From contig JAUSED010000005.1 of assembly GCA_030650425.1 (NCBI GenBank), forward strand, positions 270,932 through 334,931: a stretch of 64,000 bases of DNA, given 5' to 3'. Below the pieces are notes generated by a model. The model was not told where the DNA came from, ran no database searches, and saw only the letters and a list, made by a program, of their open reading frames with translations. Below, in pieces: positions 55,291 through 61,085 of this stretch. The DNA is from Candidatus Omnitrophota bacterium (GTDB lineage: Bacteria > Omnitrophota > Gorgyraeia > Gygaellales > Profunditerraquicolaceae). Numbering within the stretch: position 1 is the first letter of the stretch; the number at the start of each line of letters is the position of its first letter. The position numbers and the translations under genes were made by a program.

Positions 55291-55375
55291 CGTCCCGTGT
55301 TTAGAAGGGGCAAATCCCGGACGTTAAAAAAGTAAAACCTTCGTAGTCAGAAAGACTGCGGAGGTTTTTTGTTTT
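55291..55375 (+). promoter_or_regulatory. Conserved leader element (copy 1). A roughly 50-nt conserved box is followed by a hairpin and a U-tract terminator.
   Basis: CGTCCCGTGTTTAGAAGGGGCAAATCCCGGACGTTAAAAAAGTAAAACCTTCG is near-identical to 60997-61047. Followed by CCUUCGUAGUC…GACUGCGGAGG and UUUUUUGUUUU. Confidence 0.5.
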
Positions 55376-55486
55376 CCGCTTATAATTGTTTGTGATGATA
55401 TCAAGAGAAAGGAGGATTCGGAAATATATCCAACAAACAATAAATAAATTATATTCAACAAAAGCAATAGAATATGGAGGCTTACC

Positions 55487-56236
55487 ATGGAAGGCGGGAG
55501 AATGTTGAGGAATTCCCAGATAATCATTTTGGGTATATGTATCGCGGTAGCTACAATAGTTTCGAGCATTATATTATCTCAGGGATTCTTGAAGGTGATG
55601 AAGTTTACGCGTGAGCAGATTACCGTGACCGGATCAGCGCAAAAGAATATCAAAAGTGACTACATCATTTGGTCAGGTTCATTTTCTAGGCGCGAACCAG
55701 ATTTAGCCACAGCTTATAAGAAATTACAGGATGATTTGGTTAAGGCGAAAGCTTATCTTATATCAAAAATCGTAAACGAAAAGGAGATTATTATTTCCCA
55801 GATTTCTACAACTACGGTCTATAAGAAGAACGAAAAAGGGAACGATACCAATGACATCCAGGGTTATCTTTTAAGTCAGAATGTTGAAATTAGATCAGGC
55901 GAGGTTGATAAGATTGCCCAGGTTTCTCGTGAAGCAACCGAGCTAATTAATCAGGGGATTGAGTTTGTTTCGGGCGCACCGGAGTATACCTATACAAAGC
56001 TAGATGAGCTAAAAGTAGAAATGCTCGCTAAGGCCAGTGAAAATGCCAAGCAGAGAGCTGAGAGTATGGTAAAGGCCACTGGAAATAAAATCGGCCTTAT
56101 GCGTTCAGCTAGAATGGGAGTATTCCAAATCACACCGATTAATTCAACAGAGGTTTCAGATTGGGGAGTTAACGATACCAGTTCCCTGGAAAAGAAAGTA
56201 ACAGCAGTAGTGACGGCAAGTTTTGCGATTGAATAA
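55487..56236 (+). CDS. SIMPL-domain (DUF541 / YggE-like) periplasmic protein.
   Basis: 249 aa. TM/signal anchor. …ITVTGSA…SDYIIWSGSFS…. Alpha/beta SIMPL pattern. Confidence 0.6.
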   Translation: MEGGRMLRNSQIIILGICIAVATIVSSIILSQGFLKVMKFTREQITVTGSAQKNIKSDYIIWSGSFSRREPDLATAYKKLQDDLVKAKAYLISKIVNEKEIIISQISTTTVYKKNEKGNDTNDIQGYLLSQNVEIRSGEVDKIAQVSREATELINQGIEFVSGAPEYTYTKLDELKVEMLAKASENAKQRAESMVKATGNKIGLMRSARMGVFQITPINSTEVSDWGVNDTSSLEKKVTAVVTASFAIE

Positions 56237-56320
56237 ATTAGCACCAGGAAGTAGCTTAAGCAGTTGGGTCTTCTTATATCCGGTTTTACCTGTGTCTCTG
56301 TTTAGGTAGAATTTATAAAC

Positions 56321-56392
56321 ATGAAGAAATGTCCATTTTGTGCAGAAGAAATCCAAGACGAAGCAATCAAATGTAGATATTTAAGAAGATAA
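56321..56392 (+). CDS. Tiny 23-aa truncated zinc-ribbon-like ORF followed by a terminator.
   Basis: MKKCPFCAEEIQDEAIKCRYLRR. Three of four Cys are present. The stop replaces the last Cys-x-x-Cys half. Hairpin CCAGGGTTGTTTCTGGG plus T-tract follows. Confidence 0.2.
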   Translation: MKKCPFCAEEIQDEAIKCRYLRR

Positions 56393-56535
56393 AAAACCAG
56401 GGTTGTTTCTGGGTATTTTTACAGAAGTATGAAATATTTTAGTTAGATTCTGCCTTTTCTCGCGTCAATTATAATAGGCAGAAAATAATAATAACGCGAG
56501 AGAACAAAGTAAGTAAATACTAAAAGGAGCTTTTT

Positions 56536-57351
56536 ATGGAAAAATTTAACGTTTTGGGAACCGAAATAACTTGTTATAAGAAAAACGATCAAGACTATAT
56601 CTCGCTAACGGATATGCTAAAGGCCAAAGACGGCGATTTTTTTATTTCCGATTGGCTTAGAAACAGAAATACCGTTGAATTCTTGGGTATTTGGGAACGT
56701 GTCTATAATCCGGATTTTAATTATGGCGAATTCGCCATAATTAAAAGTCGAGCCGGCCTGAATAATTATAAAATAAGCGTTAAAGAGTGGGTTGAAAAAA
56801 CCAATGCTATTGGCTTAAGGGCAACAACCGGAAGATATGGGGGAACATACGCGCATAAAGATATTGCTTTTGAGTTTGGCATGTGGATTAGCGCGGAATT
56901 TAAAATTTATCTCATTAAAGAATTTCAGCGATTAAAAGAAGATGAAAATAATCGTTTGAAATTAGGGTGGAACCTGCAGCGTACCTTAGCCAAAATCAAC
57001 TACCGTATACATACCGATGCTATAAAAGAGAAGCTGATTCCTGAAGAGTTGACTAAAGCCCAGACAAATATTATCTATGCTTCGGAAGCCGATGTTTTGA
57101 ATATGGCTTTGTTTGGCATGACTGCTCAAAAATGGCGCGATAATAATCCTGAGAAGAAAGGCAATATCAGGGATTATGCTGATATATCACAGCTGGTATG
57201 CCTTTCAAATCTTGAGAATTTGAACGCCTTATTTATTAGTGAAAGCCTAAAGCAAGAAGAAAGATTATTAAAGCTGAACAAGATTGCCATTCAGCAGATG
57301 AAGTTACTCACCGATGACCGGCAAGTTAAGAAGTTGGGGATTAAGAAATAA
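56536..57351 (+). CDS. KilA-N domain protein (phage anti-repressor-like).
   Basis: 271 aa. N-terminal …YISLTDM…DWLRNRNTVEFLGIWE… KilA-N/APSES-type fold. Coiled-coil C-terminus. Confidence 0.6.
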   Translation: MEKFNVLGTEITCYKKNDQDYISLTDMLKAKDGDFFISDWLRNRNTVEFLGIWERVYNPDFNYGEFAIIKSRAGLNNYKISVKEWVEKTNAIGLRATTGRYGGTYAHKDIAFEFGMWISAEFKIYLIKEFQRLKEDENNRLKLGWNLQRTLAKINYRIHTDAIKEKLIPEELTKAQTNIIYASEADVLNMALFGMTAQKWRDNNPEKKGNIRDYADISQLVCLSNLENLNALFISESLKQEERLLKLNKIAIQQMKLLTDDRQVKKLGIKK

Positions 57352-59108: not shown

Positions 59109-59111
59109 TAA

Positions 59112-59264
59112 ATGAAAAAACGAATGTCTTTACAAGATAAGGCCGAGGCAGCGTTAAAAAAGGCGGTGCGTGGAGTAGTGGAGCGGCATAAGAAGACTGG
59201 TCGCCCGCTTTCAATATGGGAAAACGGCAAAACCATACGTATCTCCCCGAATTCGGTTAAGTAA
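59112..59264 (+). CDS. Hypothetical 50-aa protein immediately downstream of the kinase. It may be its partner or antitoxin.
   Basis: MKKRMSLQDKAEAALKKAVRGVVERHKKTGRPLSIWENGKTIRISPNSVK. GAGG RBS. A 3-nt gap after the kinase stop. Confidence 0.25.
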   Translation: MKKRMSLQDKAEAALKKAVRGVVERHKKTGRPLSIWENGKTIRISPNSVK

Positions 59265-59530
59265 CCGTAACCGAAACTGTACGATTTCTGTATACCAAGG
59301 GAGTTAAGTAATCGTAACTTGTTGTAATAGGAGAGGATTGAATTGTTAGGGCTTAATTCTCCCTGCCTCTCCGATATACTTTTTAGTAGCATAATACAAA
59401 CCTTCGTCTAGTACATGTAACTAAATTTGATGAAGGCATTTATTTTTCAATAAATCATTTCCATAGCTCCCTTTTATCTACGCTGTTTTTTAAAGATCGA
59501 GTTTCTTCCGTAGAATCATTGGAGACCTAA

Positions 59531-60925
59531 TTGTTAGCCACAGATAAAATCTTATATAAAAACGTATTATGTGTTTACCTTCATCAAAAGGGAGCGCCAG
59601 AGAAAAAATATTGCCCTCCTATCGGTTTGGAATATATTGCCGCTGCCCTAAAAGGCTTAGTTGAAAAAGTTACTCTTATAGATATGAGGTTTGAGCCGGA
59701 TCTGGATATATTCATTAAAAATAACCCAGTGGATTTGGTTTGTCTATCCGTATGTTGGGATTATCAGCGTGAAGCCGCCATAAATATTATTGCCCGGATT
59801 CCTTCTAATATTAAGGTTATTGTAGGAGGAAGGTATGCTACAACTTACGTAGAAGAATTATTTGCCGCGGCTCCCAATATAGATATTATTGTCAGGGGAG
59901 ATGGGGAGGAGACTATTCGGGATATAGCCTTAGATTTGCCTCTGATTGATATCTTAGGGATTTCTTACCGTAAAGACAGCGGTATCATTCATAATAAGTC
60001 ACGCGGACTTATCTTATTAGATGATAAAATTTATCCTGATAGAAAGTTGCGGCGGGTTAACTATAGGCTTTTATATAAAAATATAGATCTTGGACTCGGT
60101 ATAGATTTTATCTCTACTTCTAGAGGCTGTCCGTATAATTGTAGATTTTGTAGTTTTACTAATAATCCCTTAGGTCAGAAGAGGGTCTGGAGTGCGAGGT
60201 CAGCGCGCTCTATTGTTGAAGAATTAAAGACCATTGATGCTGAATTTATCTTTGTTGTAGATGACAATTTCGCCGTAGACATGAATAGGGTTGAGGAGAT
60301 TTGTGATTTAATTATTGCCGAAGGGATTAAAAAGACATTTGCGGTAGCCTTAAGGCTGGATATTTATAAGTATCCACAGATTTTAAGGAAAATGTTTGCA
60401 GCTGGTTTTAAGATATTATCAATTGGGATTGAGTCAGCCCAGGATAAAACATTAAAGGTGATAGAAAAGGGTTTTGATATTTCTTTAGCCATAAAGGCTT
60501 TTACCGAAATTCATAAGGTAAATTTTTATATTCACGGATATTTTATTGTTGGTTGCATAGGAGAAAGCGAACTAGAGATGTTGGCTATTGCCCCTTTCGC
60601 CAAGAAGCTTAGATTAGATACTATTAGCCTTAGTCTGCTAAGAACAGAAAAGTATTCACCTTTAAATGAAATTATTGCTAAGTCTAAAGGGTATCATGTT
60701 AGCGATAATGATATAGTATATTCTGAAGATTGCTCTTTGGAAAGACTTAAAAGCATTAGGCACCGCATAAGTAAAAGCTATTATGATTTTTCTACTATGT
60801 TAAGAATAGGAAAGAAGATATTTAGTGCCCATTTGATTACTCCCCAACACTTAGCGAGATTAATATCTATTCTTTTATTTAGAGGCGTAATCTCCAGGCA
60901 TTTTTCTTCTTGCAACCGTAAATAG
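59531..60925 (+). CDS. B12-binding-domain radical SAM protein.
   Basis: 464 aa. N-terminal cobalamin-binding Rossmann-like region. CPYNCRFC radical-SAM triad. Confidence 0.75.
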   Translation: MLATDKILYKNVLCVYLHQKGAPEKKYCPPIGLEYIAAALKGLVEKVTLIDMRFEPDLDIFIKNNPVDLVCLSVCWDYQREAAINIIARIPSNIKVIVGGRYATTYVEELFAAAPNIDIIVRGDGEETIRDIALDLPLIDILGISYRKDSGIIHNKSRGLILLDDKIYPDRKLRRVNYRLLYKNIDLGLGIDFISTSRGCPYNCRFCSFTNNPLGQKRVWSARSARSIVEELKTIDAEFIFVVDDNFAVDMNRVEEICDLIIAEGIKKTFAVALRLDIYKYPQILRKMFAAGFKILSIGIESAQDKTLKVIEKGFDISLAIKAFTEIHKVNFYIHGYFIVGCIGESELEMLAIAPFAKKLRLDTISLSLLRTEKYSPLNEIIAKSKGYHVSDNDIVYSEDCSLERLKSIRHRISKSYYDFSTMLRIGKKIFSAHLITPQHLARLISILLFRGVISRHFSSCNRK

Positions 60926-60996
60926 CATTCCCTTTGTGCTGAATTCTCTTGACAATAATCATTGTGGCAGTAAGATATATTCAATAATTAGGTGTT

Positions 60997-61085
60997 GTCC
61001 CGTGTTTAGAAGGGGGAAATCCCGGACGTTAAAAAAGTAAAACCTTCGCTATAGGCGAGTATGCCCAGTGAGGGTTTTTGTTTTA
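60997..61085 (+). promoter_or_regulatory. Conserved leader element (copy 2) upstream of the protease gene.
   Basis: TGTCCCGTGTTTAGAAGGGGGAAATCCCGGACGTTAAAAAAGTAAAACCTTCG plus a GC hairpin and TTTTTGTTTT. The same box as 55291. Confidence 0.5.

Follow-up and report, generated by a model that had tools for sequence, protein, structure and literature searches.

A conserved cis-acting leader RNA family with riboswitch features ahead of envelope, defence and other genes in Omnitrophota-type bacteria

The window analysed here is a 64,000-nucleotide (nt) stretch of the Candidatus Omnitrophota contig JAUSED010000005.1, and its subject is a pair of nearly identical short boxes, one ahead of a SIMPL-domain gene and the other ahead of a gene for a DegP-like protease. 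Omnitrophota are widespread, uncultured and very small bacteria, and we know of no description of RNA-based gene regulation in them. Each box is the core of a leader RNA with a hairpin stem (P1) capped by a mini-hairpin, a GAAGG motif in the 5′ internal loop of that hairpin, an A-rich linker and a CCUUC motif that forms the base of an intrinsic terminator. The features of the two units are as follows.

55242..55269, plus strand: promoter of copy 1 (TTGACA 55242-55247, 16-nt spacer, TATAAA 55264-55269; by sequence inspection)
near 55276-55278, plus strand: predicted transcription start of copy 1, about 15 nt ahead of P1
55292..55342, plus strand: aptamer-like core of copy 1 (covariance-model match, 79.4 bits, E=3e-15)
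55292-55297 pairing with 55317-55322, plus strand: P1 of copy 1, with mismatch C55296/C55318
55298-55303 and 55304-55308, plus strand: joining segment and GAAGG of copy 1
55309-55316, plus strand: mini-hairpin of copy 1 (pairs G55309-C55316 and G55310-U55315, loop 55311-55314)
55323-55337 and 55338-55342, plus strand: A-rich linker and CCUUC of copy 1
55334..55375, plus strand: intrinsic terminator of copy 1 (15-bp stem 55334-55368, T-run to 55375; terminator scan)
55487..56236, plus strand: SIMPL/DUF541 gene after copy 1 (249 amino acids, N-terminal hydrophobic segment; PF04402, E=6e-28)
60949..60976, plus strand: promoter of copy 2 (TTGACA 60949-60954, 16-nt spacer, TAAGAT 60971-60976; promoter scan 10/12)
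60997..61047, plus strand: aptamer-like core of copy 2 (covariance-model match, 78.5 bits, E=5e-15)
60997-61002 pairing with 61022-61027, plus strand: P1 of copy 2; GAAGG at 61009-61013
61014-61021, plus strand: mini-hairpin of copy 2 (pairs G61014-C61021 and G61015-U61020, GAAA loop 61016-61019)
61028-61042 and 61043-61047, plus strand: linker and CCUUC of copy 2
61039..61084, plus strand: intrinsic terminator of copy 2 (stem 61039-61078, T tract to 61084)
61111..62625, plus strand: DegP/HtrA-like serine protease gene after copy 2 (504 amino acids; Pfam Trypsin_2, PDZ_3, PDZ_2)

An earlier note on this DNA had reported two near-identical boxes preceding the genes at 55487 and 61111, and both boxes and both genes were found where it placed them. 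The boxes occupy 55292-55343 and 60997-61048 of the plus strand and differ at one of 52 positions, a likeness reached in 0 of 100 shuffles; the sole base difference, C55311 against G61016, lies inside the tetraloop. When the two regions are aligned, identity is limited to the box, and the diverged flanks retain their functional signals: a TTGACA -35 element and an A/T-rich -10 hexamer upstream (that of copy 2 ends 20 nt before P1), and a hairpin with a T-run downstream. The hairpin and U-rich tract described in the note are present, but the terminator does not come after the box: its 5′ arm, AAAACCUUCG, is the final 10 nt of the box itself. The 3′ arms of the two terminators differ, yet pairing is kept. 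The terminators fold with energies of -21.0 (copy 1) and -18.6 kcal/mol (copy 2), which drop to -6.0 and -3.9 kcal/mol, respectively, without the AAAACCUUC base.

The start codon of the DegP-like gene lies about 30 nt past the T-run, with AGAGGGAG just ahead of it, and an exact-protein look-up of its product gave no match. The nearest homologues of the window SIMPL protein are labelled Candidatus Omnitrophica/Omnitrophota, one from Candidatus Omnitrophica being 95% identical, a likeness that assigns the window to this phylum. A recent local duplication or an attachment-site repeat was considered as the origin of the paired boxes and rejected: each copy has a complete promoter and terminator of its own, different from those of the other copy, and other species have the same core. 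A filter-free covariance-model scan found no third copy in the window.

Copies of the leader are abundant elsewhere. A 19-base box pattern matched 63 metagenome stretches, about 50 of which are true homologues, and a gapped two-block pattern matched 25 genome stretches (23 true), with one strict match per genome. These 23 are species-level metagenome-assembled genomes labelled Candidatus Omnitrophota/Omnitrophica or bearing the looser labels "uncultured Planctomycetia" and "uncultured bacterium". Run SRR13727527 contains the window locus itself in exact form. With a covariance model built on 44 diverse copies, a search of 661 kb of fetched DNA returned about 95 matches at E<1e-5, 86 of them distinct, and 15 contigs hold two or three copies spaced 0.1-6 kb apart. 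The earlier note had allowed that the boxes might be just two products of a recent duplication; instead, pattern scans and the covariance-model scan it had proposed give about 86 distinct copies, in metagenomes and at least 23 species-level genomes, and the covariation check gives a P1 stem that covaries. Viral contigs held no match, and a phage origin was rejected on that ground.

The earlier note matched the box to no riboswitch consensus, and Rfam 15 has no match either. At gathering thresholds only tRNAs were found in the whole window. At E up to 10, both window copies and a locus with the two leader variants described below (types A and B) gave at best 24.5 bits against a threshold of 59, for the trpB motif and over the terminator part only. 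A known RNA family was rejected, these scans having returned only noise. Full-text literature searches on riboswitches or noncoding RNA of Omnitrophota/Omnitrophica, and on SIMPL riboswitch candidates, yielded no description. The leader RNA family is so far confined to Omnitrophota-type bacteria and uncatalogued in Rfam 15. It is a genuine, widespread cis-regulatory RNA family and apparently an undescribed one, in which the riboswitch-type leader is a known kind and the family is new.

The RNA consensus of 72 full-length distinct copies is nnnnGUcccgnguuagaaggggnaaanccnggaCnuuAAaaAAguAAAACCUUC. Its 55-nt core is near-invariant, with about 40 positions nearly invariant across species. The stem that the earlier note drew as CGTCC...GGACG exists, although it is actually GUCC(Y)G with C(Y)GGAC and contains an internal mismatch. 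P1 therefore spans six positions, GUCC-Y-G with C-Y-GGAC, and changes on both sides are seen at four pairs, with CG/GC exchanges at two pairs, GC/AU at one and AU/CG at the closing pair. The covariation score of P1 is 0.146-0.171 versus 0.055-0.057 in shuffles, none of 500 shuffles scores as high, and the signal collapses on sliding the partners. For P1, a structured sensor domain is backed by covariation. At its fifth position the stem has a conserved mismatch, which is C-C in 49 copies, U-U in 7, C-U in 4 and U-G in 9. A mini-hairpin of 1-2 bp with a variable tetraloop caps P1, a six-nt joining segment, nGUUnA, stands ahead of GAAGG, and the A-rich linker UUAAAAAAGUAAAA separates P1 from CCUUC. 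A 4-bp P2 (GGGG/UCCC), which was drawn first and also appears in the single-sequence fold, was dropped because it fails in type B and short-loop variants; the longer P1 with its 1-2 bp cap is the model that fits all variants.

The linker carries an optional insertion of two covarying hairpins in seven copies. One or two GC-rich linker hairpins with compensating stems were noted at L010, L012/L029, L020, L021, L022, L050 and L079 (L-numbers denote loci outside the window). For instance, UCCGCC...GGCGGA is followed by UCCGC...GCGGA directly before AAAAAAGUAAAACCUUC.

Leader-peptide attenuators have the same order of promoter, short leader and terminator ahead of a structural gene, and the window leader contains a 12-codon frame (GTG TTT AGA AGG GGN AAA TCC CGG ACG TTA AAA AAG TAA) that ends just before the terminator and in which the substitution is synonymous. 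Such attenuation was rejected. The start codon and frame are not preserved across homologues: the start reads GAG or GCG in most of them, and 1-2 nt insertions or deletions in the core break the frame, which together exclude a coding constraint.

A second pairing within the core is predicted from complementarity. CCUUC can pair with the GAAGG of the P1 internal loop in a duplex of -7.6 kcal/mol, and RNAalifold picks the GAAGG:CCUUC helix on the core alignment; closed in this way, the core would form an H-type pseudoknot. CCUUC, which is also the 5′ arm of the terminator, is invariant while its 3′ partner there varies between GAAGG, GGAGG and GAGGG, which argues that CCUUC is constrained beyond terminator pairing. 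A search for divergent copies, covering SIMPL loci of three other Omnitrophota lineages and distant DUF3108-like loci, returned one further copy, L100, in which GAAGG and CCUUC are unchanged, so the pseudoknot stays a prediction.

The leaders are organized as promoter-to-gene units. Of 77 copies, 59 have a sigma-70 match of at least 9/12 whose -10 hexamer ends 17-23 nt ahead of P1, and the copies that have no promoter are second copies in tandem. A Shine-Dalgarno sequence (SD), a start codon and an open reading frame (ORF) of at least 80 amino acids follow on the same strand, 10-130 nt past CCUUC, in 52 of 86 copies compared with 13% at random positions. Genes start 15-60 nt beyond the T-run, and a divergent gene lies upstream in only 4 of 73 cases. 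The element thus has the location of a riboswitch, in the 5′ untranslated region, upstream of the regulated gene and on the same strand.

Two expression platforms are attached to the same sensor. CCUUC is the terminator base in about 72 copies, so the terminator platform suggested by the earlier note is the one that most copies use. In the type B variant (about 8 copies, sequence AAGUCGUACGUUAGAAGGGGGAAACUGCGACUCUAAAAUAAUUAAAACCUUC), the terminator is replaced by a hairpin, CCUUCUUUGU-loop-ACAAAGGAGG, that buries the SD 5-8 nt ahead of the start codon AUG. The type B P1 is GUCGUA/UGCGAC or GUGGUA/UGCCAC, and the fold is kept; one type B example lies at L035:753-835. Type A is followed by type B within a single leader before DUF3108-like genes (L035, L072, L074), and further tandem leaders precede SIMPL (L004, L010). 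The same sensor on two kinds of platform, together with tandems, are riboswitch hallmarks. As judged from the sequences, the platform appears to overlap the sensor through mutually exclusive pairings, and the two platform types combined with a same-strand gene start just downstream argue for a cis-acting, riboswitch-like ON switch.

Dense arrangements were also noted. At L007, three copies lie within about 1.4 kb, and consecutive genes for an HD_4 hydrolase, a small membrane protein and an alpha-2-macroglobulin each have their own copy. At L088, three copies lie within about 420 nt, a type A copy being followed in tandem by a P1-swapped copy (GUGG/CCAC).

The genes behind the leader are diverse. 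SIMPL follows it at eight loci, namely the window and L004, L010, L021, L055, L056, L062 and L063. Other envelope or exported products include DUF3108-like proteins, alpha-2-macroglobulin, DegP or trypsin-like proteases, DUF3857 with transglutaminase, TPR and DUF3142 proteins, and a crude test finds a hydrophobic N-terminal segment in 36 of 84 downstream proteins. Another group consists of DNA, defence or mobile-type genes: C5 and D12 DNA methylases, REase-ARP, AbiV, HigB, DUF4238, an AAA_23 ATPase, RmuC, DnaB_C, Bro-N and an IS200-like gene. Hydrolases are found as well, including HD_4 (RelA/SpoT-type HD) at two distinct loci, L007 and L060, a NUDIX hydrolase and a deacetylase; no GGDEF, EAL or HD-GYP genes were seen downstream. 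The shared cis-acting regulon of envelope genes that the earlier note proposed holds as regards cis location, promoter-to-gene order and P1 covariation, but the gene set is far broader and contains many defence and DNA genes. Its pattern resembles second-messenger riboswitch regulons more closely than metabolite riboswitch regulons, but a protein effector has its main argument in the same pattern. The HD_4 and NUDIX genes, the only ones downstream that suggest nucleotide hydrolysis, give a weak hint of a nucleotide signal.

Relatives of the window keep the leader and exchange what follows. L034 matches the window at 85% identity up to the terminator, after which a small Bro-N ORF stands in place of SIMPL and KilA-N; the stretches compared are 55068-55375 and 57387-57796 of the window. 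In L063 and L055 the leader of copy 2, its terminator and its ribosome-binding region are 92% identical to window positions 60997-61116, and SIMPL replaces DegP. Homology between related genomes and the window breaks at or just past the start codon. In accessory regions the leader therefore acts like a portable module for regulated expression.

These observations make it very probable that the boxes are a conserved, cis-acting, structured leader RNA that responds to some signal by switching the genes behind it through a terminator or a masked ribosome-binding site. The family ranks best as an orphan riboswitch candidate whose predicted logic is ON. In the mechanism we propose, each box would be the sensor domain of a 5′ leader whose transcription starts about 15 nt upstream of P1. 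The P1 hairpin with its mini-hairpin cap would form, and the A-rich linker would then lead to CCUUC, for which two partners compete. Pairing with GAAGG in the 5′ internal loop of the hairpin would give the H-type pseudoknot and complete the sensor fold; pairing with a downstream purine-rich GRRGG would instead build the base of the terminator (in most copies, including both in the window) or bury the SD (type B). We infer that an effector stabilizes the pseudoknot during transcription, keeping CCUUC out of the terminator (type A) or out of the SD hairpin (type B), and so turns the downstream gene ON; in the window these would be the SIMPL and DegP-like genes. Without effector the far more stable terminator would form and an RNA of about 95 nt would be released. 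Most likely a small molecule or ion serves as the effector and reports on a global state; our leading guess is a nucleotide (alarmone or second messenger). We place the probability of the full mechanism, a small-molecule or ion effector acting on a pseudoknot ON switch, at about 0.6.

Several observations weigh against this mechanism. The pseudoknot shows no covariation because neither strand varies, which is partly a result of search patterns that required both strands, and four copies have an uncompensated A or C in place of its outermost G. No coherent pathway emerges from the downstream genes; the annotated ones (many others have no Pfam annotation) include neither a transporter nor a biosynthetic enzyme as a pointer to a ligand, and so mixed a set is also compatible with a sensor that is bound by a protein or is physical in nature. 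The pairing of a strong promoter with a strong terminator is also what a free-standing small RNA would show. At SIMPL loci of the three other Omnitrophota lineages, the 10 kb to either side contain no leader copy. The leader is not found throughout the phylum, and its link to any one gene is loose.

Instead of a small molecule, the same leader and alternative pairing could answer to a macromolecule, whether an antiterminator protein, a global regulator, the 30S subunit on the SD-like AGAAGGGG or a trans-acting RNA. A mixture of defence, restriction-modification, toxin-antitoxin, envelope and DNA repair genes is more typical of a protein-controlled regulon, and primary sequence that is almost invariant over 55 nt, unpaired parts included, is like that of many protein-binding leaders; GAAGGGG is itself SD-like. 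However, no candidate protein gene is consistently adjacent, and the compact pseudoknot-type fold with its A-rich linker, the tandems and the two platforms are classic small-molecule riboswitch features. A macromolecular effector is on balance unlikely.

Another possibility is that the terminated transcripts are themselves the product, acting as multi-copy trans-acting small RNAs (sRNAs) or as a sponge for a protein or ligand, with read-through incidental. Near-consensus promoters and strong terminators would give abundant RNAs of about 95 nt, and there are one to three copies per locus. The sRNAs LhrC and RsaE/RoxS are similar in being about 100 nt long, having their own promoter and terminator, occurring in more than one copy and carrying UCCC/GGGG-rich conserved segments. 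Hfq-type sRNA modules have an A/U-rich single strand beside a U-tailed terminator, a likeness that counts in favour of this explanation, as does the abundant terminated c-di-GMP riboswitch transcript that in Bdellovibrio has reportedly been proposed to be a ligand sink. The only Rfam near-match is LhrC, on the opposite strand, at E=0.6 and 21 bits against a threshold of 110. Unlike these sRNAs, the leader is closely tied in cis to the start codons that lie downstream of it, and a terminator is missing from some copies: type B copies bury the SD of the next gene. The 15-60 nt from T-run to gene start leave no room for a promoter of the gene's own, orientation is strongly biased, and tandem copies occur within single leaders. 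The family therefore lacks the marks of trans-acting sRNAs, which are independent units of free orientation followed by genes with promoters of their own. A secondary role in trans is possible, and a primary one seems quite improbable.

Direct sensing of temperature, of Mg2+ or ionic strength, or of pH through the C-C mismatch, with no specific ligand pocket, is very improbable. The weak pseudoknot (-7.6 kcal/mol) does compete with a strong terminator, a conserved C-C or U-U mismatch in P1 could respond to protons or metal ions, and stress-type genes such as those for DegP and SIMPL would suit such a sensor. Against this, about 40 nearly invariant positions across species suggest a specific binding site, the C-C, U-U and U-G variants are chemically non-equivalent as pH or metal sensors, and the RNA thermometers known so far work at the level of translation and allow their sequence to drift. 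Least credible of all is a promoter-terminator cassette that senses nothing and, being mobile or prone to recombination, spreads through accessory regions: close relatives do differ in the genes right behind a shared leader (L034; L063, L055) and the neighbours are often defence, mobile-element or plasmid-type genes, but compensatory changes preserve P1, conservation between species-level genomes extends to the core and not to the flanks, the type B platform incorporates the SD of its gene, the repeat search of the window gave the 52-nt direct repeat and no terminal inverted repeats, there are no target duplications, and the fixed orientation relative to downstream genes is unlike that of miniature inverted-repeat or repetitive extragenic palindromic elements.

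The proposed ON switch was compared with known architectures of small H-type pseudoknot riboswitches and with known gene associations of the GEMM class. Like the preQ1-I (RF00522), SAM-II, SAM-V, guanidine-III and fluoride riboswitches, it has a compact core, about 50 nt long, in which a hairpin is followed by an A-rich 3′ linker and a short 3′ strand; this strand is predicted to pair back into the hairpin loop and also belongs to the expression platform. It differs from them in its conserved nucleotides, in having no match to their Rfam models even at E up to 10, in its predicted ON polarity and in the absence of associated queuosine, S-adenosylmethionine, guanidine or fluoride genes. The GEMM riboswitches for c-di-GMP (I and II) and cyclic GMP-AMP are alike in their heterogeneous, often secreted or envelope, genes, in several copies per genome, in tandems and in the use of terminator and translational platforms; their fold is entirely different, the leader is much smaller, and no Rfam match links the two.

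A more far-reaching version, doubtful as it stands, would see in the family a new class of riboswitch that answers to a nucleotide signal of global reach (an alarmone or second messenger), possibly made on stress, phage attack or host contact, and that switches ON an accessory regulon of dispersed genes. The A and B types would then have two different specificities, tandems would provide two-input logic, and the leader would double as a portable module for exchanged cargo. If this were true, the regulon would join envelope protection (SIMPL, DegP, alpha-2-macroglobulin, transglutaminase-like proteins) with anti-phage and restriction-modification functions and with hydrolases that might degrade the signal (HD_4, NUDIX).

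A conserved sensor RNA offers a direct experimental handle on bacteria of this kind, since it can be synthesized and screened for ligands without culturing the organism. It could reveal the signal behind the envelope-defence and anti-phage genes of Omnitrophota, and with a small-molecule effector it would be a new riboswitch class with an unusual regulon. As a compact, natural and predicted ON switch with terminator and ribosome-binding-site versions, it may also be of use in synthetic biology.

Some minor observations concern the surroundings of the leader and its cargo. Contigs L102-L105 (6-8 kb) carry the distant DUF3108-like gene beside ParA, RepA_C/TrfA, integrase and Fic genes and have a plasmid-like look; the collection lists their DUF3108-like protein in 152 blocks, and a leader copy is not present there. 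In the window, the 1583-amino-acid ORF directly upstream of the first leader (50052-54803) has no Pfam match. A short ORF at 62615-62755 overlaps the DegP-like gene at its end and is similar to the C-terminal portion of the Bro-N ORF that stands directly behind the orthologous leader of L034 (NFLLVVDK-KIAC-KSGQNI-HFVD-NKM); to go by this likeness, it is probably a Bro-N remnant. A second direct repeat, 57668-57796 and 62866-62994 (129 nt, 78% identity), corresponds to paralogous small minus-strand ORFs at 57556-57786 and 62838-63044, one past each leader-controlled unit, whose sequence by eye looks like a resolvase-type helix-turn-helix. The window thus holds two units of like make-up: leader, cargo gene, KilA-N/Bro-N gene or fragment, and small minus-strand ORF. 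Between them, at 57837-58135, three copies of a short direct repeat (GCGACAAGC....AGCGAG, 30-33 nt) flank tRNA-Ser(cga) at 57933-58017, and tRNA-Ser(gga) lies at 58421-58507.

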